Positions 303 to 50,922 of a stretch of 50,975 bases of DNA are shown piece by piece. Position 1 is the first letter of the stretch. Every line of letters starts with the position of its first letter. The DNA is from Candidatus Yanofskybacteria bacterium. GTDB taxonomy: Bacteria; Patescibacteriota; Minisyncoccia; 2-02-FULL-40-12; GWA2-44-9. Location of the stretch: assembly GCA_003151795.1 (NCBI GenBank), contig PLYL01000022.1, positions 1-50,975 of the forward strand, given 5' to 3'. Below the pieces are notes generated by a model. It did not search any database. It saw only the letters and a program-made list of their open reading frames with translations, and had not been told where the DNA came from. The position numbers and the translations under genes are program-made.

Positions 303-1848
303 AAATCATGAAAGAACTCAAACCAAAATATTTTCTCTACGCGAGGAAATCAACAGAGGATGATGACCACCAGATAATGTCTATTGAGGCACAGCTTTTT
401 GAATTGCACGAATATGCGCGTAGAGAAAATCTTGAAATTCTTGAGGAATTTCAAGAGTCGAAAAGCGCAAAGAAACCGGGTCGTGAACTATTTAACGAAA
501 TGATGGCCCGCATTGAAAATATGGACGGCGTAGGCATCCTCGCGTGGCATCCAGACCGTCTTGCTCGCAATAGTGTCGACGGCGGGCGCATCATTTACGC
601 AGTAGACACGACCAAAATAGTTTCTTTACGCTTTCCGACATTTTGGTTTGAGCCAACTCCGCAAGGCAAATTTATGTTGCAGGTGGCGTTCGGACAGAGT
701 AAGTATTACAGCGATAATCTAGTTGAAAATATTACGCGTGGTATCCGCCAAAAAGTCCGTCGAGGCGAGTGGTTGGTGCGCGCTCCCTTTGGCTATGTGA
801 ATAATCCAAAAACGAGAAATATTGAACCTCACCCGACTAAATCTCGCATTGTGGTGAAAGCGTTTGAAGAATACGCCAAAGGGACGCACACCCTCGGCAC
901 TATCGCGGACTTTTTGGCGGATCACGGCGTGAGTACGAAAGGAACGCCACCTGCCAAAGCTTCCGTCGCTCGTATGCTCTCAAATCGTGTCTATCTCGGC
1001 TTTACATACCACAAGGGCGAGTATTACGACGGAAGCTTTGCGCCAATTATTTCTCCGACACTGTTTGAAGCAGTCCAAAAAATGCTTGCGAAAAAATCTC
1101 GCCCTCGCGTGCAAAAAGTACCGAACCATTTTCCATTTGCACAATTCGCTCGGTGCGGTGAGTGCGGAAGTATGATTACGGCTCAATATGCGACAAATCG
1201 TTTTGGTACTAAATATACTTACTATCGCTGTACCAAAAAGAAAGGTGTTTGTCATCAGCCGTATCTATCATCTTCCGCACTCATTTCGCAAGCAAAAAAT
1301 CTGCTTCAATCAGTGTCGCTTCCTCTTTCAGAAATTGAGAACATGGAAAAGCAAATTGACTTGTGGGACAAAGAGTCAATTTCCGAAAGAGGAAGTGTTG
1401 CCCAAAATCTTAAAACCAAACTTTCCGAAACGAAGGAGAAGCTGGACAAACTTGTTTCCATTTATCTTGACGGCGATATTGAACGCGAAATATATTTACA
1501 GCGAAAAGACCTTCTCCTTCGTCAGAAAGCAACGTTTGAGGAAAGTTTTAAGGATTTTGGGCAACAGAGAAAAAATTGGGTCGAACCCTTGCGGAGTTTC
1601 GTTTTGTCTTTGAGAGAAGCCGTTATTTTGGAAAAAAGCGAAAACTATTTCGCATGGAAAGAGTTTTTCCAAAAAATCGGCTCTAACCCTATTCTCAAAG
1701 ACAAAACGCTTTCATGCAATTGGGGGGAGCTTTGGGAATTCACGGCTTCCGCCGTAGGCGGAAAGGGTTTTGAAAAAAATGATAGCGCGATTTTGGCTCC
1801 CGCAAAATCGCTCCGTTTTCTTAATTCCGACAATGTTTCGTTTGGTGG
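171..1848. mobile_element. LSR integrative element 1 at the tRNA-Ala(GGC) 3' end; left part continues beyond the window start
   Basis: LSR gene reads into the antisense tRNA 3' end; 132-bp inverted repeat 171-302 / 1717-1848 ends at the tRNA CCACCA. Confidence 0.8.
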
Positions 1849-1864
1849 ACCGTACCGGACTTGA
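308..1864 (+). CDS. Large serine recombinase (resolvase, recombinase and Zn-ribbon domains plus coiled coil)
   Basis: YARKS catalytic motif, DRLARN, PFGY, CGECG...YYRC...C. Confidence 0.95.
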   Translation: MKELKPKYFLYARKSTEDDDHQIMSIEAQLFELHEYARRENLEILEEFQESKSAKKPGRELFNEMMARIENMDGVGILAWHPDRLARNSVDGGRIIYAVDTTKIVSLRFPTFWFEPTPQGKFMLQVAFGQSKYYSDNLVENITRGIRQKVRRGEWLVRAPFGYVNNPKTRNIEPHPTKSRIVVKAFEEYAKGTHTLGTIADFLADHGVSTKGTPPAKASVARMLSNRVYLGFTYHKGEYYDGSFAPIISPTLFEAVQKMLAKKSRPRVQKVPNHFPFAQFARCGECGSMITAQYATNRFGTKYTYYRCTKKKGVCHQPYLSSSALISQAKNLLQSVSLPLSEIENMEKQIDLWDKESISERGSVAQNLKTKLSETKEKLDKLVSIYLDGDIEREIYLQRKDLLLRQKATFEESFKDFGQQRKNWVEPLRSFVLSLREAVILEKSENYFAWKEFFQKIGSNPILKDKTLSCNWGELWEFTASAVGGKGFEKNDSAILAPAKSLRFLNSDNVSFGGPYRT

Positions 1865-2597: not shown

Positions 2598-2670
2598 GTC
2601 CCGGTAGCTTAATGGATTAAGCAGCCCCGTCCTAAGGGGAAGACTGCAGGTTCAAGTCCTGCCCGGGACA
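2598..2670 (+). tRNA. tRNA-Arg(CCT)
   Basis: GTCCCGG/CCGGGAC acceptor stem, GTCCTAA anticodon loop, GGTTCAAGTCC T arm. Confidence 0.93.
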
Positions 2671-2678
2671 CATACAAA

Positions 2679-4112
2679 ATGCGATTACCGAAAGAAGTAC
2701 AATCGATTCTCTCAACCCTCAAAGAAGGGGGTTTTGAGGCGTATGTTGTCGGGGGATGTGTCCGTGATCTAATCGTCGGCAATGTGCCCAAAGACTGGGA
2801 TGTGACGACCAATGCCCCGCCCGAGAAAATTCAGGAACTTTTTCCCGAACACGTCTACGAAAACACGTTCGGCACCGTCGGCGTAAAGACGGGTTCCGCC
2901 GACCCAGTGCTCGCGCTGGTAGAAGTTACGCCCTACCGCACCGAAGGCAAGTATAGCGACAAACGCCATCCCGACAATGTAAAATTCGCGGCCAGGCTTG
3001 AAGACGACCTCTCGCGCCGCGACTTTACTATCAACGCGCTGGCGATGGATATTGAGGGCAACATTATCGATCCGTTCGAGGGCAAGAAAGACCTCAAAAA
3101 CAAAATTGTCCGCACGGTCGGCGCGGCCGAACAACGCTTCAACGAAGACGCTCTGCGCCTGCTCCGGGCGATTCGCTTCGCGGCCCAGCTTGGATTTGAG
3201 ATTGATTTGGAAACACAAACCGCGGTAAAGAAAAATGCCGAGTGGCTCCGCGCGATTTCCAAAGAACGTATCCGCGATGAATTCGTTAAAATTATCGAAT
3301 CGGATCAGGGCTACGAGGGTATCTTGTTATTGGAGGAACTGGGCCTCATGAAATACATCGTGCCCGAACTGCGAGAGGGTATCGGCATCGACCAGAATCT
3401 CCACCACATCTACACAGTCTGGGAACATAATACTCGAGCCATGAAATACGCGGTTGAGAAAAAATATTCTCTGGCTATTCGGCTGGGTGCCTTGTTCCAC
3501 GACATCGGCAAGCCCCGCACCAAACGCGGCGAGGGGAAGCACGCGACATTCTATGGCCACGAAGTCGTTGGCGCCCGCATGGCGGCCGGCATCATGGATA
3601 CGTTGAAATTTCCGAAAGATATCGGCGAAAAAATCGTAAAGCTTGTCCGCTATCATATGTTTTACTACAACGTCGACGAAGTCACCGAATCTTCGGTGCG
3701 CCGATTGCTAGTCAATGTCGGCCAGGAAAATGTCGAAGACCTGCTCAAAATCCGCGAAGCCGACCGGATTGGTTCGGGCCGGCCCAAAGCCATTCCGTAT
3801 AAACTCCGCCATCTCAAATACATCATCGACAAAGTTTCGCATGACCCCATCTCGGTCAAAATGCTCAAGGTCAACGGCGAAGACGTCATGGGCAAGCTTG
3901 CTTCGGGGCCTGGCGCTAAAATTGGACTGGTCTTGAATTGCTTGCTGGCCGAGGTGCTGGATGACCCGGCCAAGAATACTAAAGAGTATTTGATAGAACG
4001 CATCCGCGAACTCGACAAGCAGTCGCCCGAAAATTTAAAAAAGGCCCTGGAAAAAATCGAGCGGGCCCAAGAAGAAGAGGAAAAAGAACGAGCGAAAAAG
4101 TACTATGTTTAG
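2679..4112 (+). CDS. cca: CCA tRNA nucleotidyltransferase with HD domain
   Basis: VGGCVRD, DWD, RRDFTINA, EDALRLLRAIRF, HDIGK. Confidence 0.93.
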   Translation: MRLPKEVQSILSTLKEGGFEAYVVGGCVRDLIVGNVPKDWDVTTNAPPEKIQELFPEHVYENTFGTVGVKTGSADPVLALVEVTPYRTEGKYSDKRHPDNVKFAARLEDDLSRRDFTINALAMDIEGNIIDPFEGKKDLKNKIVRTVGAAEQRFNEDALRLLRAIRFAAQLGFEIDLETQTAVKKNAEWLRAISKERIRDEFVKIIESDQGYEGILLLEELGLMKYIVPELREGIGIDQNLHHIYTVWEHNTRAMKYAVEKKYSLAIRLGALFHDIGKPRTKRGEGKHATFYGHEVVGARMAAGIMDTLKFPKDIGEKIVKLVRYHMFYYNVDEVTESSVRRLLVNVGQENVEDLLKIREADRIGSGRPKAIPYKLRHLKYIIDKVSHDPISVKMLKVNGEDVMGKLASGPGAKIGLVLNCLLAEVLDDPAKNTKEYLIERIRELDKQSPENLKKALEKIERAQEEEEKERAKKYYV

Positions 4113-4286: not shown

Positions 4287-4499
4287 ATGAGAAACATTAT
4301 AAATATTTCGTTACCAAAAGAACTTGTGATGTCAGTAAAAAAAGAAGTTAAAAGGGGCAATTTTGCCAGTACAAGCGAATATTTCCGCCATCTTTTGCGC
4401 ATCCAGAAAGCGGCAAATGAGATCGAGGAAGCGCGTAACGACTGGGAGAATGGCCGTAAGAATTGGAAAGTATTGAAATCGCTTAAGGAATTGATGTAG
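4287..4499 (+). CDS. Ribbon-helix-helix (ParD-like) antitoxin
   Basis: INISLP...GNFASTSEYFRHLLR; lies directly upstream of a RelE-like toxin. Confidence 0.8.
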   Translation: MRNIINISLPKELVMSVKKEVKRGNFASTSEYFRHLLRIQKAANEIEEARNDWENGRKNWKVLKSLKELM

Positions 4500-4503
4500 G
4501 CTA

Positions 4504-4761
4504 ATGAAAATCTTTTACCACGCGAACTTCAAACAACAGTTTAAAAAGTTGCATCGCAATATACAGCTCTCGGCGTTGCACAAGGAACAAATTTTCAAAA
4601 TTGACCCATTTGATAAAAGCCTCGAGACCCACAAACTTCACGGACCGTTTAAAAACTCGTGGGCTTTTTCCGTGAACAACAAGTACAGGATAGCTTTTGA
4701 TTTTATGGACAATGATTTAGTTCTTTTCTTCGCCATAGGCACCCACGATATTTATAAATAA
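4504..4761 (+). CDS. RelE/ParE superfamily toxin
   Basis: 85 aa; HKLHG, YRIAF, IGTHDIY. Confidence 0.85.
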   Translation: MKIFYHANFKQQFKKLHRNIQLSALHKEQIFKIDPFDKSLETHKLHGPFKNSWAFSVNNKYRIAFDFMDNDLVLFFAIGTHDIYK

Positions 4762-4774
4762 AGAATATACGGCC

Positions 4775-5452
4775 ATGCGCGTCGCGATTTTTGGGAACAA
4801 TAAAGCTGAAGCGGAAAATCTGGCCGAGAAGGCCGGCTTCACTTTGGCTGATGACAAGCTGGATTTTGTCGTCAGTTACGGCGGAGATGGCACGTTTATG
4901 AAATCAGAGTTCGCGTATCCAGGCGTGCCGAAAATAGTTTTGAAAGATAGCCAAATCTGCAAAGTCTGTTCGGCATTTCCGAACGATGAAGTGCTGGCCA
5001 AAGTCCGAGCGGGGAGCTATGAGATTAGACCGCTCATCAAACTTGAAGCCACCGCCAATGGCCGGGCTATCACCGCCATGAACGATATCATCGTCCATAA
5101 CTCCGACCCGCGCCATGGCATCCGGTATCAAATTTGGTCAGATGGCCGTCAATTCGGCGATACCATCATCGGCGACGGCGTCGTCGTGGCCACGCCGTTC
5201 GGTTCCACGGCCTACTACCGAAGCATCACCGACAGCTTCTTTGAAACCGGCCTCGGCTTGGCCTTCAACAACAGCACCGAGCAGATGGACCATGTCGTCC
5301 TTGATGACCAGAAGACTATCAAGATTAAAATCACCCGCGGTATGGTCGGTGTCTACGCCGATAATCAGGAAGAACATTTAAACCTAAAAGAAGATGACGA
5401 AGTGGTAATTAAAAAATCAGCTTCGGTCGCACAGTGGGTAATAGTGAAATAG
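4775..5452 (+). CDS. nadK: NAD(+) kinase
   Basis: GGDGT, ND, GDGVVVATPFGSTAY. Confidence 0.9.
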   Translation: MRVAIFGNNKAEAENLAEKAGFTLADDKLDFVVSYGGDGTFMKSEFAYPGVPKIVLKDSQICKVCSAFPNDEVLAKVRAGSYEIRPLIKLEATANGRAITAMNDIIVHNSDPRHGIRYQIWSDGRQFGDTIIGDGVVVATPFGSTAYYRSITDSFFETGLGLAFNNSTEQMDHVVLDDQKTIKIKITRGMVGVYADNQEEHLNLKEDDEVVIKKSASVAQWVIVK

Positions 5453-5462
5453 CTTAATAATT

Positions 5463-5652
5463 GGGCCTGTCGTAAAGTGGTATTATACGACATTCGTTCA
5501 CCCGCCCAAACTTTCCCCTGGGCCCATAGCTCAGCTGGTAGAGCGCGTCATTCGCATTGACGAGGCCGCCGGTTCGAATCCGGCTGGGTCCACAGGAAAG
5601 TTTAGGCGGGCAAGTTGCCGGGTCGGGAGTCCGATTCTCCCCAGGTCCACCA
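5463..5652 (+). tRNA. Interrupted tRNA-Ala-like gene (outer), with a roughly 115-nt insert in the anticodon loop
   Basis: 5' half GGGCCTG-TC-GTAA-AGTGGTA-TTAT-A-CGACA-TTCG; 3' half TGCCG-GGTC-GGGAG-TCCGATT-CTCCC-CAGGTCC-ACCA; G3:U70 pair. Confidence 0.75.
5520..5592 (+). tRNA. tRNA-Ala(CGC), nested inside the outer tRNA-like gene
   Basis: Canonical cloverleaf: GGGCCCA/TGGGTCC, CGTCA-TTCGCAT-TGACG, GGTTCGAATCC. Confidence 0.96.
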
Positions 5653-7119
5653 GAGAGGAAATTGCAAGTTTTTGGGCATAGGGCCGCCGCAGGCGGCCAC
5701 CAAATCGTAAGGAATTTTGGGCGAAAAAAGCAGTTGGCGATTCTGCAAAATGCAGTTCGAGCCGATATTTTTAAGAAATGTTGTCATTTCCGATTTGTTT
5801 TCAAATTCAAGCAGTTTAGAGGCTTGATTCAAGGACAAAACAAACTCACGAGCCGGTTCGAGCCAAGATAATCCTATTTGTTCAAAATCCGTAATTTTCT
5901 CGCCAAGCCCTACCTTTTGGATAACAAGGATTTCCTTTCTTACTTTGTAGTCATCGGCAGAAATGACCTCGTTAAGATATACGTCAAGAAGTTTTTGGAG
6001 TTTGGCCTCAATCTTGGTTAATTCTGTTTTGAAATTTTGAACAGTAGTTTTAGCTTCCTCTTTTGCTCGGCTTTCATCTTTTTCTAGCTCGGCTAAAACT
6101 TTCTTGGTGTCTTGGCTTGACAAAGAAACTTTTTGAAGAAACGACTTAACTTGTTTATATAGTTCTTCATCTCGCAAAAAATACTTTTCTTGGCACGGCC
6201 CTTTCTTTTTCGTGCACCGATAGTAAATATATTCTCTACCGCTTGGCTTGATTTTCTTTTCGGCTGTTATAGCTGCAGAACAAGGACATTTCATTAAGCC
6301 AAGAAAAGCAAAATTATGTTTCTTAATTTTTTGCGATTTTCCTTTTTCTCGCATGATCTCTTGTACTCTATCAAAAAGTTTCTTTGAAATAAGCGGCTCG
6401 TGAGTTCCTTGGAAAATTTCTCCTTTGTATTTCATCAGCCCTATATAAAAAACATTTTGGAGTATTTTAGGGACTTGCGAGATATACATACCTTTATCCA
6501 AATTGCTTTTGGTACTTACTCGCATATACCACTCGGCTAATTCTCGGAGGTTGTAATTTCCAGTGGCATAAAGCTCAAAAAGTTTTTTTACTTTGCGGGC
6601 TTTTTCTGTATTAACATCAATCCCGCGTGTCTTTGGATTATTGAGATAGCCGAGCGGTGCTTTGCTAGGCCAAACTCCGTTTCTCACTTTTTGTCTCATC
6701 CCACGAGTTACATTTTCACGTAGGGCGTCCACATAATATTTTGATTGGCCAAAAGCAATTTGGAGCATAAAAAGTCCTTGTGGCGTTGGTTCAAACCAAA
6801 ATGTTGGAAATTTCAACGCTTTAATCAAGCCGCGATCTATCATGTGAATTATTCTTCCGCCATCTACGGAATTACGAGCAAGACGGTCGGGATTCCACGA
6901 AAGTATGCCGTCCGCTTTTCCTCTCTCAATCAATGCCAACATTTCTGCGAATTTAATTCGCCCAGGTTCTTTGGCAGTTTTTGCCTCTTGAAGAGAGGCG
7001 ACGATTTCAAGTTTTTCTTTGGCGGCAAATTCTTTTAACTCAAAGATTTGGGCCTCAATACTCAAAATTTGTCTATCGTCATCTTCGGTGCTCTTGCGAG
7101 CGTAAAGTATATATTTCAT
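5602..7119 (-). CDS. Large serine recombinase
   Basis: YARKS, DRLARN, PLGY, CPC...YYRC...C, coiled coil; C-terminus reads into the antisense tRNA. Confidence 0.95.
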   Translation of the reverse strand: MKYILYARKSTEDDDRQILSIEAQIFELKEFAAKEKLEIVASLQEAKTAKEPGRIKFAEMLALIERGKADGILSWNPDRLARNSVDGGRIIHMIDRGLIKALKFPTFWFEPTPQGLFMLQIAFGQSKYYVDALRENVTRGMRQKVRNGVWPSKAPLGYLNNPKTRGIDVNTEKARKVKKLFELYATGNYNLRELAEWYMRVSTKSNLDKGMYISQVPKILQNVFYIGLMKYKGEIFQGTHEPLISKKLFDRVQEIMREKGKSQKIKKHNFAFLGLMKCPCSAAITAEKKIKPSGREYIYYRCTKKKGPCQEKYFLRDEELYKQVKSFLQKVSLSSQDTKKVLAELEKDESRAKEEAKTTVQNFKTELTKIEAKLQKLLDVYLNEVISADDYKVRKEILVIQKVGLGEKITDFEQIGLSWLEPAREFVLSLNQASKLLEFENKSEMTTFLKNIGSNCILQNRQLLFSPKIPYDLVAACGGPMPKNLQFPLWWTWGESDSRPGNLPA

Positions 7120-7152
7120 ATGGTTTTGATTAAAAATTTTCTTTTCCCAAAA

Positions 7153-7253
7153 TGCAGAATCGCCAACTGCTTTTTTCGCCCAAAATTCCTTACGATTTGG
7201 TGGCCGCCTGCGGCGGCCCTATGCCCAAAAACTTGCAATTTCCTCTCTGGTGG
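7153..7253. repeat. 101-bp inverted copy of 5647-5747
   Basis: tgcagaatcgcc...ctctggtgg is the reverse complement of ccaccagag...ggcgattctgca. Confidence 0.95.
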
Positions 7254-7338
7254 TCTATTCTTAAAGTAGTTCGGACGCATTTCGCCGCCAAGGGCGGCGG
7301 GGATCTGGCCAAAAATTCCGAACCGAAATTCTGAACTT
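7250..7338. repeat. 89-bp inverted copy of 8294-8382
   Basis: gtggtctattcttaaag...ttctgaactt is the reverse complement of aagttcagaa...ctttaagaatagaccac. Confidence 0.95.
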
Positions 7339-7446
7339 AAAAACTGCCAAAGAACCTGATAAAAATATCGGCTCGGACCGCATTTTAATTTTGGGAAAAG
7401 AAAATTTTTAATCATTTATTATTAAATCATTAAGCATATAATTTTT

Positions 7447-8229
7447 ATGTCTAACGAAGAATACAAACCAATACCCAAGGAGGTTACAGGCGCAGAAACA
7501 TCTATGCCTGCTGAGCATAGTGAGGCAAGAAGCAAAGATTACAAAACATACGACATTCCAAGACTCACACTAGATTTAACCAACGAACTTGAAACCAAGC
7601 TTATTGTCCCACTTGAAGAAGCTCGTCAAGTCAAGGCTGCTTTAGAATCACTCGAAGATCTTGCGAAGCGTGTTCCAATTAGAATCATCAAAAGTTCTTT
7701 TTCTGGCGGTAGTGGTCGTGCAGATCCTCATAACGAAGGTCCCGGCCCGTGGGCTCCTGAAACAGCAATTAGATACTTGGAATTAGAAGGTCCAGAAGTT
7801 GGATCCCTCAACGAACTTGCATCATCTCTTCGCTATCTAATTGTGGATTTTAACACCGCGAGGAAAGCTGCTGTATCAATTAAACAACAAGGTGGATCAG
7901 GGAAGAAGGCTTTTATTATGATACCTAATTCTGAAGAGAATGGCCTCTATGTAAATCTACATAAGGCCATAGATAAGAAGGGTATAATCGACCACTTTGA
8001 ACCAATAGCACAAGCCAAACTGGATAATGTCACTCAGGAGTGGATTCCACGACTTAGGTCTAATATAAAGAGTACTTTCTTAAAGGCAGTGGAGATTCTT
8101 CGAGAATCCGCTGCAAATCCATCAAGTTGGTCGGATTCGAGTGACCCCTCAACATTCCCCAAGGATCGTCCTGAAACTCTCTTGAGTTTAGCAAAGGAAA
8201 TTGAGGAAATGGAAAGACATATAAACTGA
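7447..8229 (+). CDS. Hypothetical protein, sole cargo of element 2
   Basis: 260-aa ORF with ATG start, divergent from the LSR; no recognised motif. Confidence 0.75.
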   Translation: MSNEEYKPIPKEVTGAETSMPAEHSEARSKDYKTYDIPRLTLDLTNELETKLIVPLEEARQVKAALESLEDLAKRVPIRIIKSSFSGGSGRADPHNEGPGPWAPETAIRYLELEGPEVGSLNELASSLRYLIVDFNTARKAAVSIKQQGGSGKKAFIMIPNSEENGLYVNLHKAIDKKGIIDHFEPIAQAKLDNVTQEWIPRLRSNIKSTFLKAVEILRESAANPSSWSDSSDPSTFPKDRPETLLSLAKEIEEMERHIN

Positions 8230-8479
8230 GTCTGGGGCCTTAGAGTTCAAATAAGAAGAGAATTTGCCGCCAAAGAAAAACTTGAAATTGTCAAAGTTCA
8301 GAATTTCGGTTCGGAATTTTTGGCCAGATCCCCGCCGCCCTTGGCGGCGAAATGCGTCCGAACTACTTTAAGAATAGACCACAACGTTGTCAACATAATT
8401 CATTGGAAGTGGATAAGTGTCTAGTGAAAATAGAGATCCCTAAATTAGGCCTTGTTTTTCCTTAGTTTTTAATGCTTAA

Positions 8480-9079: not shown

Positions 9080-11086
9080 ATGTCAGCGACCAATCCAATC
9101 CTCAAAGGACTGAATGACAAACAGCAGGAAGCCGTCAAGACGATTGACGGCGCGGTTTTGGTTATCTCGGGGCCGGGTTCGGGCAAGACCAAATGCTTGA
9201 CCCATCGAGTGGCCTGGATGATTTCTAAAGGCATCGAGCCGAGGAATATCCTGGCAATAACTTTTACTAACAAATCCGCCAATGAAATGAGAGAACGGAT
9301 TAGAAAATTGCTCGGGTTAAATAAACTCGGTAATGAGAACTGGGAACTCAAAACGTCTTCAAATCTACCAACCATCGGAACATTTCATGCTATTGGGTTA
9401 CGAATTTTAAGAAGAGAGATTCCCATACTCGGCTACAAATCTAATTTCAATATCTGCGATTCGGATGAACAGCTTTCGATGATGAAACGCATAATGGGCA
9501 ACCTCGAAATCGATCCGAAGCGCTACAATCCCCGAAGCATGCTGGGCAAGATTTCCAAACTCAAAACCGCTTTAGTCTGGCCCGATGACTATGAGCCCCA
9601 CGAATACATGGAAAAATTGGTGGCGAAACTCTATGGCCACTACCAGAACGGGCTCAAAGAAATGAATGCGTTGGATTTCGATGATTTGATTGTTCTCACA
9701 GTTAAAATATTCAAAGAAAATCCCAAAATCCTAGAAAAATACCAGGAATGGTGGAAGTACATCATGGTGGATGAGTATCAGGACACCAGTCATGACCAGT
9801 ACCAATTCGTCCAGCTCCTGGCGGGCAAATACAAAAACATTTTCGCCATCGGCGACGATGCCCAATCCATTTATGCTTTTCGGGAAGCCGATATCAGGAA
9901 TATTTTAAATTTCCAAAAAGATTATCCCGAGGCCCAGGTCATCATGCTCGAGCAAAATTACCGCTCGACCCAGACGATTCTCGCGGCCGCCCAGAATATT
10001 ATCTCCAATAACAAAAACCAGTTCCCAAAAACTTTATGGACCGACAACGCGGCAGGAGAGAAGATAGTGGTCAAAGAAACCCTCAATGAACGGACCGAGG
10101 CCAATTTCATCGTCACCCAAATCGTAAAGTACATGCGCAAAGGCTACGGCTTGAATTCGTTTACGATTCTGTACCGCACCCACGCCCAATCCCGCTCGAT
10201 GGAAGAAGCGCTCATCAGCCACGGCTTGCCGTATCAGATTGTCGGCGGGTTGAAATTCTACGAGCGCCGAGAAATCAAAGACATCATGGCGTATTTGAAA
10301 TTAATCCATAACCCGATGGATATTTTAAGTTTGGAACGCATTTACAACGTGCCGGCGCGCGGCATCGGTGATACGACCTACCAAAAGATTCTGGCCGTCG
10401 GCAATCCCAATTTGTTTGAAAGTTTAGCGAGTTTGATTGATAAGGAAGGAGCGACCAAAAAAGCCAACGCTTTAAAATCATTTCACAATCTCCTGACTGA
10501 CTTAAAAAAATTCGCCGACAATAACACGCTCACCAAAACCATGAAACGGATTGTCGAGGCCGTCGGCTATGAACAATACATCCGCGCCCAAGCCCTGGCC
10601 AAAGGCGCCAAGGCCGAAGAAGTCGAATCCCGCATCGAAAACATCGCCGAGTTATTTACCGTCGCCAAAGGCTATGATGTCCTTGACCCTGAAGCGGGAC
10701 GCGGTAAGTTCCTGGAAGAAATCGCGTTGCTTCAACAGGCCGACGCCATCAAAGACAACGCCATTCGTATTACCCTGATGACCATGCATTCGTCCAAGGG
10801 TCTGGAGTTTCCGATTGTCTTTATCATCGGCATGGAAGAAGGCCTCTTCCCGCACGCTCGCACGCTCTACGCGCCCCACGAGATGGAAGAAGAGCGCCGT
10901 CTCTGCTATGTTGGGATTACGCGGGCCAAGGAACGCCTGATTTTGACTCATGCCAAATACCGCAACATTTTTGGTACGACCGAGGTTAATTTGCCGTCGC
11001 GTTTTCTGCACGAGATACCGGCGGAGTTACTAGATAGACAAGTGTCTGATCCGAATAATGAGTATGAGGATGTGGTTGAATATTAG
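9080..11086 (+). CDS. pcrA: UvrD/PcrA DNA helicase
   Basis: GPGSGKT, VDEYQD, GDDAQSIY, QNYRS, KGLEF, EEERRLCYVGITRA. Confidence 0.95.
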   Translation: MSATNPILKGLNDKQQEAVKTIDGAVLVISGPGSGKTKCLTHRVAWMISKGIEPRNILAITFTNKSANEMRERIRKLLGLNKLGNENWELKTSSNLPTIGTFHAIGLRILRREIPILGYKSNFNICDSDEQLSMMKRIMGNLEIDPKRYNPRSMLGKISKLKTALVWPDDYEPHEYMEKLVAKLYGHYQNGLKEMNALDFDDLIVLTVKIFKENPKILEKYQEWWKYIMVDEYQDTSHDQYQFVQLLAGKYKNIFAIGDDAQSIYAFREADIRNILNFQKDYPEAQVIMLEQNYRSTQTILAAAQNIISNNKNQFPKTLWTDNAAGEKIVVKETLNERTEANFIVTQIVKYMRKGYGLNSFTILYRTHAQSRSMEEALISHGLPYQIVGGLKFYERREIKDIMAYLKLIHNPMDILSLERIYNVPARGIGDTTYQKILAVGNPNLFESLASLIDKEGATKKANALKSFHNLLTDLKKFADNNTLTKTMKRIVEAVGYEQYIRAQALAKGAKAEEVESRIENIAELFTVAKGYDVLDPEAGRGKFLEEIALLQQADAIKDNAIRITLMTMHSSKGLEFPIVFIIGMEEGLFPHARTLYAPHEMEEERRLCYVGITRAKERLILTHAKYRNIFGTTEVNLPSRFLHEIPAELLDRQVSDPNNEYEDVVEY

Positions 11087-29932: not shown

Positions 29933-29954
29933 GCTTGCCCGCCTAAGTTTTATT

Positions 29955-32156
29955 CTAAAAGTTTGGCGTGGGCGTCGGAGAAGGAGTCGGTGTGGGGGAC
30001 GGATAATTACCATATGACGCCTCGCCGTAGGCCTGTAGGACCGGCCAGTCCCAATTGGCGAACTGGGGATCGTTGCCAGGATTGGATGGGATTGGACCCA
30101 GCGGGTCGGTCCGGTCGACGTAATAAAGGATTTCATGGTACTGGGTCGGCCCGCCGTCTGGCGGGGTGTAGCTTATGTTGCCATTCAGCATGGGCTTGTC
30201 AGAGCTCACCGGGTCCGGATCGGGGAATGATTCATGGGGAAAAGTCGCCAGGGCTTGGGTCATGAATTCGTGCCACATTGGTCCGGCGGCGCTGACACCG
30301 GCGCCGGCTTGGGTCATGGAACTGTTGTCGTTGTTGCCGGTCCAGACGGCCGTGGAGATGGACGGACTGAAGCCGACCAGCCAGCCGTCGCGATTATCTT
30401 GGGTGGTGCCGGTTTTGGCGGCCACGTCGTAGCCGGGAATATAGAGCGAACTGTTGTAGCCGAACTCCGGCGCCCGGGCGGAATTATCAGAGAGGACATT
30501 ATCAATTAATCGAGCGGTTTGGGTGTCGAGAACACGCTGGGGCTGGTCCTGGGCTTGTTCCAGGATGTTGCCATTCACGTCGGAAACGCTTTTGATAATG
30601 CGATACGGATTACGGACGCCGTCATTGGCGAAGACGCCGTAAGCCGAAGCCATGTCGATTGGTTTCACTTCCGCCCCGCCTAAGACCAAGGAGAGGCCGT
30701 AGCGGCTCGGGTCGGTCAGGGTGGTGATGCCCATTTCTTGAGCGAAACTGATAGTGTCGGGGATGCCCGCGAGATAGAGCGTTTTTACCGACGGCACATT
30801 GAGCGATTCATCAATGGCTTGGCGCATCGTAACGGCGCCGCGGAATTTACCGTCATAATCTTGGGGGTGGTAGCAAGCTAACCCGTATTGGTCGGTGGTC
30901 TGATTTCCATCCGGCGAGCAGTTGGGATTGAATTCTGTTTTGTAATCGAAGATGGTCGTTGAGTCGGGGTAGCCCTTCTGGAAAGCGACCGCATAGGCAA
31001 ATGGCTTGAATGAGGAACCGGGCTGGCGGGCCGCGGTGGCGACATTAAAGTTGCCTTGATTGGCGACGTCGAAATAATTAACCGAGCCGACTAAAGCAAG
31101 GACGTCGCCATTTTTCGGACTGACGGCGACCAGAGCCGCGTTCGAGGCTTTGTATTTTGTTTTGTTGATGGCCGCGTATTTGGTCACGGCCGCTTCGGCG
31201 TAGCCCTGGAGGGTGGCGTCGAGGGTGGTGATGATATTAAAGCCGCCGCTTTCAATCGCCGCCTCGCCGTATTTAGCGGCCAGATAATCTTTGACCATAA
31301 TCACAAAATGCGGAGCGGTGATGCTTTCGGTACTCGAATGAAAGACCGGCTTTTCGGCGACGGCTTGCTGATAGTCGGCGTCGGAGATTGAACCGAGCTT
31401 TTTCATGCTGGCGAGAATAGTATTCTTGCGGGTGATAAGGTCATCAATGTGATTGCCGTAGGGCGAGTAGTAGCTCGGCGCTTGGGGCAGGGCCGCCAGC
31501 GTGGCCGCTTCGCTCAAATCTAATTGAGAGGCGCTTTTGCCGAAGAATGTTTTGGACGCCGCCTCGATACCGTAGGCGTTCGAGCCGTAAGGAATCTGGT
31601 TTAAATACATCCAAAAAATCTGGTCTTTGGAAAACTGGCGTTCCAGCTCAACCGATAAAATCAACTCTTCAACTTTACGCAAGGCTGTTTTCTGGCTTCC
31701 GAGGAGAGTCTGCTTAACTAATTGTTGGGTAATTGTTGAACCACCCTGCGATAAGCTGAAGGTTGTAACATCATTATATATCGACCGAAGAATACCTTTT
31801 ATATCAAACCCGCCATGAGAATAGAAACCGCTGTCTTCGGCGGCGAGAGTCGCGTTCTTTAAATTGGCCGGGATTTGTTCCCAAGGAATGATGGTTCGCT
31901 TTTCTTCGCCATGGATGTCATAGAGAAGGACCTGGCCCGTCCGATCGTAGATTTTGGTCGATTCGCTGACTTTGCGATCGGCGATGGAGTTGGGGTCGGG
32001 AAGGATGCGCTGGATATAGATAAACAAGCCGAAAAACAAAATCGCGCCGATGACGACAAGCCAGAGCACGAACATTCCCACTTGCTTCAGGCTCGGCTTT
32101 TTAATTTTTGAACTCTTGAATACTCGGCCGATAATAGGCGACATGGCTGACATCAT
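29955..32156 (-). CDS. Class A penicillin-binding protein (PBP1A family)
   Basis: AEDSGFYSHGG, GGSTITQQL, RKVEE, SSFK, SLN, KTGT. Confidence 0.95.
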   Translation of the reverse strand: MMSAMSPIIGRVFKSSKIKKPSLKQVGMFVLWLVVIGAILFFGLFIYIQRILPDPNSIADRKVSESTKIYDRTGQVLLYDIHGEEKRTIIPWEQIPANLKNATLAAEDSGFYSHGGFDIKGILRSIYNDVTTFSLSQGGSTITQQLVKQTLLGSQKTALRKVEELILSVELERQFSKDQIFWMYLNQIPYGSNAYGIEAASKTFFGKSASQLDLSEAATLAALPQAPSYYSPYGNHIDDLITRKNTILASMKKLGSISDADYQQAVAEKPVFHSSTESITAPHFVIMVKDYLAAKYGEAAIESGGFNIITTLDATLQGYAEAAVTKYAAINKTKYKASNAALVAVSPKNGDVLALVGSVNYFDVANQGNFNVATAARQPGSSFKPFAYAVAFQKGYPDSTTIFDYKTEFNPNCSPDGNQTTDQYGLACYHPQDYDGKFRGAVTMRQAIDESLNVPSVKTLYLAGIPDTISFAQEMGITTLTDPSRYGLSLVLGGAEVKPIDMASAYGVFANDGVRNPYRIIKSVSDVNGNILEQAQDQPQRVLDTQTARLIDNVLSDNSARAPEFGYNSSLYIPGYDVAAKTGTTQDNRDGWLVGFSPSISTAVWTGNNDNSSMTQAGAGVSAAGPMWHEFMTQALATFPHESFPDPDPVSSDKPMLNGNISYTPPDGGPTQYHEILYYVDRTDPLGPIPSNPGNDPQFANWDWPVLQAYGEASYGNYPSPTPTPSPTPTPNF

Positions 32157-50796: not shown

Positions 50797-50850
50797 GACT
50801 CAACCGAACCGGTGTCGCCTTGACCCCGTTCGGTCGGTCTCACATGCCTG

Positions 50851-50922
50851 TGCGCCCGGAGGGAATCGAACCCCCACCAACAGCTTCGAAGGCTGCTGCT
50901 CTATCCGTTGAGCTACGGGCGC
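50851..50922 (-). tRNA. tRNA-Arg(TCG)
   Basis: GCGCCCGTAGCTCAACGGATAGAGCA-GCAGC-CTTCGAA-GCTGT...GGTTCGATTCC...CGGGCGCA. Confidence 0.96.

Follow-up and report, generated by a model that had tools for sequence, protein, structure and literature searches.

REP and REPIN sequences with RAYT, and the transposase-less derivatives of IS200/IS605, are short multi-copy hairpins with a conserved tetranucleotide beside the stem foot and a patchy distribution among relatives. To our knowledge, they carry no cargo in their loops, do not replace two bases of a target and do not occupy tRNA loops. Rickettsia palindromic elements are small palindromes that have spread through a reduced genome and have entered genes, some of them functional. 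In tRNA-dependent lysogeny, as outlined by Guerrero-Bustamante and Hatfull (2024, PMC10865867), an actinobacteriophage inserts itself into a tRNA gene of its host and does not restore that gene. In archaea, some tRNA genes are interrupted or split, and loop inserts pass from one tRNA gene to another (Fujishima 2010, as cited in PMC10714607; Sugahara 2012, PMC3293823). These inserts are cut out of the RNA at a bulge-helix-bulge motif, by EndA together with a ligase, and it is the outer tRNA that functions.

The window, that is, the whole 50,975-nt stretch of DNA analysed, is contig C22 of a 766-kb genome (G000) of Patescibacteria (CPR) type, 99.6% complete in 25 contigs. In it, a tRNA-Ala(CGC) gene is interrupted by a hairpin-armed cassette that encloses a second tRNA-Ala(CGC) gene (Table 1). 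The best explanation as a whole, to which we assign a probability of about 0.78, is that the resident gene was replaced in place by the cassette-borne copy. Full-text searches of the literature found no description of tRNA-in-tRNA nests in Patescibacteria, and tRNA gene swapping by hairpin cassettes in these bacteria is apparently unpublished.

The nearest published logic is that of tRNA-dependent lysogeny, in which the incoming element likewise enters a tRNA gene without rebuilding it. As presented there (PMC10865867), the element is a whole phage with a tyrosine integrase and an attP/attB core, whereas the cassette is 118 nt long and has a tRNA as its sole gene. The cassette also lies inside the target loop and has hairpin arms, and the neighbouring recombinase element is of the serine type and is joined 32 nt away, at the tRNA 3' end. 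The archaeal genes are a more distant parallel: a loop insert is common to both, and so is a long helix that joins two tRNA parts. In contrast to what is described for archaea, no such processing machinery was found here, there is no exact exon junction, and the inner gene is read as the functional one.

The arms themselves resemble other elements. With 7-14 solo copies in G000 and CAAG or TAAG after the stem, the hairpin family shares with REP and IS200/IS605-derived elements the multiple copies and the conserved flanking tetranucleotide and, like them, is probably handled as folded single strands; unlike REP/RAYT systems, G000 has no Y1/RAYT gene. A Rickettsia palindromic element is tolerated inside the gene product, whereas the cassette is read as destroying and replacing its target. 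MITEs (DDE-type) have similar inverted-repeat arms; instead of a target-site duplication, the target of the cassette has lost 2 nt (CA).

Structure of the nested locus and its exact lesion

The preliminary description, made from the sequence alone, had proposed an inner tRNA on a 16-bp stem with one mismatch, an outer acceptor stem with G3:U70 and a 5' break after TTCG. Every one of these structural statements holds by sequence, ARAGORN, Rfam and folding. The inner tRNA-Ala(CGC) scores 69.2 bits with the Rfam tRNA model RF00005 (family threshold 29 bits) and is called Ala(cgc) by ARAGORN. Read from the sequence, the 16 bp of the cassette stem (5501-5516 / 5595-5610) contain a single C.A mismatch, the outer acceptor stem GGGCCTG/CAGGTCC has G3:U70, A73 and an encoded CCA, and the outer D hairpin is present. 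The minimum-free-energy fold of 5463-5655 is the exact nested shape (-84.5 kcal/mol, z = -4.2), and none of 200 shuffles was as good. Outside its tRNA, the cassette amounts to only 45 nt, and the insert has no protein gene.

Table 1. Coordinates of the parts of the nested locus and of the adjoining recombinase element in the window
Feature	Position	Strand	Basis and remarks
Outer tRNA-Ala(CGC), 5' part (positions 1-35)	5463..5496	+	Ends TTCG (U32 U33 C34 G35), i.e. after C34 G35 of the CGC anticodon; 97% identical to 5' part of intact genes in G007, G021, G015, G032, G016
Hairpin-armed cassette, 118 nt, standing in for C36-A37 of the outer gene	5497..5614	+	Intact relatives, X3 contig, family membership
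Cassette 5' tail TTCA	5497..5500	+	TTCA in 25/46 family members
5' arm of 16-bp stem	5501..5516	+	Pairs with 5595-5610; stem positions co-vary across 27 nests
Inner canonical tRNA-Ala(CGC)	5520..5592 (end 5592/3)	+	ARAGORN; Rfam; G3:U70, A73, no encoded CCA
3' arm of 16-bp stem	5595..5610	+	Pairs with 5501-5516
Cassette 3' tail CAAG	5611..5614	+	CAAG demanded by the nest search pattern; CAAG/TAAG independently seen after solo hairpins of G000
Outer tRNA-Ala(CGC), 3' part (positions 38-73) and CCA	5615..5652	+	Last bases CCACCA already part of the recombinase-element repeat
Serine-recombinase element at outer tRNA 3' end	5647..8382	.	Left junction CCAC 5647-5650, right CCAC 8379-8382, inverted attP-like junction 7250-7253
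LSR2 large serine recombinase gene	5602..7119	-	Pfam Resolvase + Recombinase + Zn_ribbon_recom

The outer gene has uninterrupted counterparts. A BLAST search with 5455-5660 against 40 relatives found the outer pieces two bases apart on one strand in five genomes (G007, G021, G015, G032 and G016), at 87-97% identity (mostly 91-97%). These five copies, all from genera other than that of the window, are uninterrupted tRNA-Ala(CGC) genes that ARAGORN calls and that score 51.7-59.5 bits with the Rfam tRNA model; their anticodon arm reads CGGCA TTCGCAT TGCCG. In two members of the same genus (G002 and G005), an uninterrupted tRNA-Ala(CGC) gene with the loop TTCGCAT starts no more than about 10 nt after the NAD kinase gene. 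The NAD kinase gene of the window ends at 5452, directly ahead of the outer tRNA. In G002, a UvrD gene follows the tRNA within about 45 nt; the UvrD gene of the window starts at 9080. Since relatives have an uninterrupted gene at the same NAD kinase locus, the outer gene is the syntenic chromosomal tRNA-Ala(CGC), and the insert is a later arrival. The proposal that the outer halves are a real tRNA-Ala gene is thus borne out by syntenic and by 97% identical copies, and these genomic comparisons show the halves to be those of the resident chromosomal tRNA-Ala(CGC) gene.

The same relatives define the lesion. Where they read TTCG-CA-TTGCC, the window reads TTCG, then the 118 nt of 5497-5614, then TTGCC. 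In run X3, a Logan contig lacks 5497-5614 and has the two letters CA between 5496 and 5615. This 'empty' contig, with a match of 33 nt on its shorter side, probably represents another locus or organism with an intact gene and not an empty allele of this one. A suggested check had been to run ARAGORN with and without the insert. The outer gene is not called as encoded. When a script put CA between the halves, ARAGORN recognised a tRNA-Ala(cgc); GT in the same place produced Pro(cgg), and the halves without a linker went uncalled. The intact relatives, the X3 contig and the rejoining script agree on the replacement of C36-A37. By these comparisons, it is shown that in this lineage a 118-nt DNA cassette has replaced these two anticodon-loop bases of tRNA-Ala(CGC).

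A chimera of two tRNA-Ala alleles, created during assembly, would imitate such a nest. The source is a metagenome assembly, and the depth of the Logan contigs is low (2-5). However, a contig of run X1 (5443-5630) spans both cassette junctions, and a contig of run X5 (5568-5747), from another study, spans the 3' junction, each with 0 differences. This is the read support for the nesting that had been asked for, and since independent contigs from two studies carry the junctions and the same architecture occurs at 27 other distinct loci, a chimera is scarcely credible.

The outer gene is now a shell. It gives no Rfam tRNA call at E<=1 and no ARAGORN call with the intron option. In a census of the 46 tRNAs of G000, the inner gene is the sole callable tRNA-Ala(CGC). 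The shell differs from the intact gene of G007 at 2 of 70 positions, and one of the differences (G29 to A) creates an A.C mismatch in the anticodon stem at a pair that is kept in the intact genes compared. The outer T arm is GGGAG/CTCCC with the loop TCCGATT. The preliminary description had noted this loop, correctly, and had called it atypical, but it is not a sign of decay, as it also occurs in uninterrupted genes of G021, G023 and G005. A shell so nearly intact does not prove by its sequence decay that the gene is dead; it is best read as recently killed. With only these two differences, the window appears to catch a replacement soon after the event. A tmRNA-like identity of the shell was considered and dropped: with 18 bits, its 3' half stays below the threshold of 84, the likeness being confined to a shared Ala-type T arm and acceptor.

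A hairpin family that carries tRNA genes

In cargo-free copies of the hairpin, a loop of a few bases connects the same arms. G000 contains seven such solo hairpins by strict matching and about 10-14 by looser matching. Solo hairpins are found in 25 of the 105 genomes of the order, in which a reversed control pattern had 0 matches, and they are patchy even among congeners (8 in G002, 0 in G005 and 0 in G001). The solo copy at about 29934-29975 (minus strand) has no counterpart at the orthologous site of G002 or of G003, where the alignments, at 74-75% identity, are too divergent for a base-level junction. An ORF with a Pro/Thr-rich tail takes its final codons and its stop from this copy. On the 3' side of the stem, solo copies retain CAAG (or TAAG), while the four bases in front of the stem vary; TTCA occurs mainly in cargo carriers.

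With a looser arm pattern, the genome collection gave 47 loci, the viral collection 1 and the metagenome collection 89, which together with the window copy make 99 distinct sequences. The search pattern for nests placed no condition on the cassette flanks beyond the required CAAG. A tRNA lies between the arms in 28 of the 99 distinct matches, namely in the window and at 27 further loci. The cargo comprises Ala, Val, Met, Arg, Thr, Ile, Pro, Leu, Glu and Gln tRNAs with 19 different anticodons. The search for similar stems inside tRNAs, also proposed earlier, therefore yields a hairpin family: the named records that hold it are Patescibacteria-type assemblies, plus a few labels that resemble mis-binning. 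In two genomes of the same order (G028 and G029), the same arms have a tRNA-Ala between them and tRNA-Ala halves outside. The single match in the viral collection has no tRNA inside. Among the 71 matches that lack a tRNA, only 19 pair at >=4 of the 5 unconstrained outer stem positions, compared with 27 of the 28 with a tRNA, and judged by this pairing the 71 are mostly chance matches.

In the nests, the stem varies in sequence and retains its pairing. Stem pairs 1-5, on which the pattern set no constraint, form in 25-27 of the 27 nests. Pair 4 occurs as GC, CG, GT, AT and TA, pair 11 as TA (22) or CG (5) with no mismatch in the 27 nests, and pairs 15-18 show all four Watson-Crick types. Judged by these substitutions, the cassette stem is maintained. 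Whole cassettes are conserved within a cargo type, at 96-98% among three that carry Ala and at 87-91% among three that carry Arg(CCT). Taken together, these genomic patterns show that the window cassette is a cargo-bearing member of a hairpin repeat family of about 35-45 nt that is patchy across related Patescibacteria genomes.

The position of the cassettes within their shells follows a rule. With CA restored, 12 of the 28 shells become callable and 16 do not. The anticodon of the callable shells is that of the cargo in 11 of 12 cases and the orientation in 12 of 12. Arms on the same strand as the tRNA go with insertion in the anticodon loop (5/5), and arms on the opposite strand go with insertion in the D loop, at positions 16-18 (7/7). 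In all five callable anticodon-loop nests, only CA restores the anticodon of the cargo. In the D-loop nests, the missing bases, judged by eye against the D loop of the cargo, are TG in the tRNA sense. A tolerant local-alignment test covers all shells: 22 of 28 best match a cargo with the same anticodon and 6 of 28 do not, and four of these six still show, by eye, the cognate anticodon motif. Cargo cassettes thus almost always sit in a tRNA gene of the same anticodon and orientation, either in its anticodon loop at CA or, with the arms inverted, in its D loop at TG (tRNA sense).

Some members depart from the simple form. The shells at L053 and L077 bear extra small hairpins of other families, at L077 one of them at the same anticodon-loop position, and dead shells seem to collect further insertions. 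Some members (L046, L081, L064 and L084) have tRNA-less, AT-rich loops of 70-100 nt, and at L084 a minimal 44-nt hairpin stands beside a partly nested second copy.

As a rival reading, the nest could have been born in place, by local duplication or rearrangement without a mobile element, with the arms as a locally evolved processing stem. At four loci (L074, L140, L154 and L178), the inner and outer genes are indeed very alike. In the window, however, the shell has a local alignment score of 24 against its own cargo and of 46 against the cargo of L088, and the outer gene is 97% identical to genes of other genera. Moreover, the same arm sequence surrounds tRNAs of 19 anticodons on unrelated contigs, and the arms also exist as solo repeats, present or absent between congeners. 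An origin in place is accordingly highly improbable.

The window cargo is, on the sequence relationships, foreign. Compared by eye, the D, anticodon and T arms of the inner gene are unlike those of the outer one; around the anticodon, 11 nt in a row are identical in cargo and target. The inner gene is 91-92% identical to the tRNA-Ala(CGC) genes of G035, G012 and G019, of which those of G012 and G019 stand free. G029 has a shell that belongs to the window's inner type. As inner and outer types swap roles in different genomes, tRNA types appear to replace one another. Two related loci are more complex. The gene in G035 (L008, contig C6, about 148000-148074) is a tRNA-Ala(CGC) with 92% identity to the inner gene; it lies within a degenerate shell, between arms of a different family. 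At L015 (G016, contig C15, 2103-2177 region), a tRNA-Ala(TGC) of the window's outer type comes immediately after the 5' arm of the family. The 3' arm does not adjoin this gene and may have been moved away by an insertion after CCACCA.

Probable replacement in place and its alternatives

An RNA-level explanation deserves to be weighed with the lesion in mind. The preliminary description had offered an intron-like hairpin as one possibility: the 118 nt would be an RNA intron, cut at the foot of the stem, and ligation of the outer halves would give two tRNAs from one gene, one of them intron-encoded. In favour of it, the entire unit folds into one cloverleaf within another, the shell has hardly changed, and co-variation of the stem is also expected from RNA-level selection. 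However, C36 and A37 are absent, so that the exons are not intact. Among 576 precise excisions around the insert, ARAGORN made 41 calls over many anticodons and none was Ala(CGC); two excisions gave Ala(ggc) or Ala(tgc) with a non-standard length of 75 nt. RtcB (PF01139) and the splicing endonuclease EndA (PF01974) have no match in the 99.6%-complete G000, and the controls matched. No Rfam intron family matched at E<=1, and a covariance search of 5440-5680 for a group I intron core returned the inner tRNA and sub-threshold noise only. Across the family, the arms of D-loop nests are reverse-complemented relative to the tRNA, and 16 of 28 shells are no longer callable. Splicing of the outer tRNA is therefore unlikely to occur, and the intron reading as a whole is very improbable. 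The idea that the insert carries a replacement tRNA fared better and is supported.

Replacement in place would proceed as follows. The insertion would inactivate the resident gene, because the anticodon is broken and no simple excision rebuilds it. One transcript would contain both cargo and shell, RNase P and 3' processing would free the cargo, and the CCA-adding enzyme encoded at 2679-4112 would complete the inner tRNA. The cargo would then be the source of tRNA-Ala(CGC), and the host would come to depend on the incoming copy. A promoter scan found one weak sigma-70-like site at 5304-5331; such sites are no more frequent than in shuffles. Upstream of the locus, the CCA-adding enzyme gene lies directly after a tRNA-Arg(CCT) gene (2598-4112), and a small toxin-antitoxin pair of the RHH and RelE-HigB-like kind, with weak Pfam scores, occupies 4287-4761.

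The insertion itself would act on DNA and not on RNA, and the use of the arms in both orientations relative to the tRNA points to DNA recognition. Known transposition chemistries give target duplications or conservative joins, unlike the clean loss of CA, and we know of no nameable transposition chemistry that fits the exact loss of two target bases. A search for transposase candidates among Y1 and TnpB-type families found none in G000: the Y1 HUH transposase (PF01797) had no match there, with the control matched in 6 genomes, and a TnpB-type transposase was not found. A Y2 profile had no match in G000, nor in any control. Serine recombinases were considered as the mobiliser and rejected, as they are present in 16 of the 25 hairpin-bearing genomes compared with 65 of the 105 of the order, and G002, with 8 hairpins, has none.

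How the cassette reaches its cognate gene is suggested by its near-exclusive residence there. The pattern left the flanks free, and at other sites an additional tRNA ought to do no harm. Insertion would therefore need homology to the cognate tRNA gene, or else the cassettes would spread by recombination between cognate loci. One possible form of targeting is that the cassette finds its target by means of its own cargo, through pairing of DNA or transcript with the resident gene, which would make it a self-targeting replacement drive for each tRNA species. A spare tRNA elsewhere, being harmless, should be seen, yet 22-27 of the 28 cassettes lie in a cognate shell. We put this form forward tentatively and regard it as doubtful. 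If true, it would be a new principle of target choice.

The wider meaning of the replacement reading lies in the tRNA complement of these bacteria, which hold a single copy of most tRNAs and in which tRNA genes would be replaced in place, one inside the other. It would offer a mechanism for the turnover and horizontal spread of tRNA genes, one that annotation pipelines hide as the shell goes uncalled. Among bacteria, the nests would correspond to the split and interrupted tRNA genes known from archaea, except that no splicing would take place. With about 45 nt of arms and a gene that makes loss costly, the cassette may be the smallest known 'addictive' mobile unit. tRNA halves beside hairpins in Patescibacteria would be read as dead shells, and not as introns or island fragments.

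Serine-recombinase elements beside tRNA genes

The element that the preliminary description placed at the 3' end of the outer tRNA is confirmed as a serine-recombinase element of 2.7 kb, joined to the shell by a crossover between GGT and CCAC. It contains perfect inverted repeats at 5647-5747/7153-7253 (101 nt) and 7250-7338/8294-8382 (89 nt). The frame of its recombinase, LSR2, runs antisense through the outer 3' part and has its stop inside the 3' arm of the cassette. Like integrative elements at tRNA 3' ends, the LSR2 element is site-specific at the 3' end and supplies the last bases of the tRNA. It differs from them in its large serine recombinase and in the long perfect inverted repeats around the recombinase gene. 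The element is separate from the cassette and not its cause, because the crossover lies 32 bases from the cassette end. A likeness between an LSR2 repeat arm and the hairpin arms, weak and seen by eye only, was dropped.

A second recombinase of the window, LSR1 (308-1864, plus strand), is 48% identical to LSR2, and its element is joined in the same manner to tRNA-Ala(GGC) at 1848. The LSR1 gene is bracketed by perfect 132-nt inverted repeats (171-302 / 1717-1848). For both LSR1 and LSR2, one repeat arm begins exactly at the CCACCA with which the tRNA-Ala ends, and the tRNA contains, in antisense, the end of the recombinase frame.

These junctions bear on whether the shell is maintained, and not merely young, because its 3' half serves as the attachment site of the recombinase element. 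The preliminary description had offered, as its other possibility, a decayed shell kept as an att landing pad; the recombinase element is there, but with 2 of 70 positions different from the G007 gene, 'decayed' was an overstatement. The junction of the LSR2 element with the shell between GGT and CCAC, the joining of LSR1 at the same motif of tRNA-Ala(GGC) and the intact T arm and acceptor strand of the shell agree with such a role. However, the 5' half, useless for attachment, is equally intact, which a recent insertion fits better. There is also no evidence of selection on the shell, and an element that has already integrated needs no preserved site. Maintenance as an attachment site is thus unlikely.

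Recombinases of this kind are numerous in the genome. Eight large serine recombinase genes lie in the 766 kb of G000 (contigs C2, C6, C15 and C22), and two of them touch tRNA-Ala genes. The third recombinase of the window (49499...) has no long inverted repeats within the contig; it converges on a tRNA-Arg(TCG) at 50850-50922. Within the LSR2 element, the ORF at 7447-8229 was considered as a recombinase paralogue and showed no similarity. This ORF lies in the segment 7339-8293, between the repeats 7250-7338 and 8294-8382. In Logan contigs of runs X5 and X6, the segment is inverted (7250 joined to 8383, on opposite strands), and this opposite orientation indicates that it is a real invertible segment of the recombinase element.
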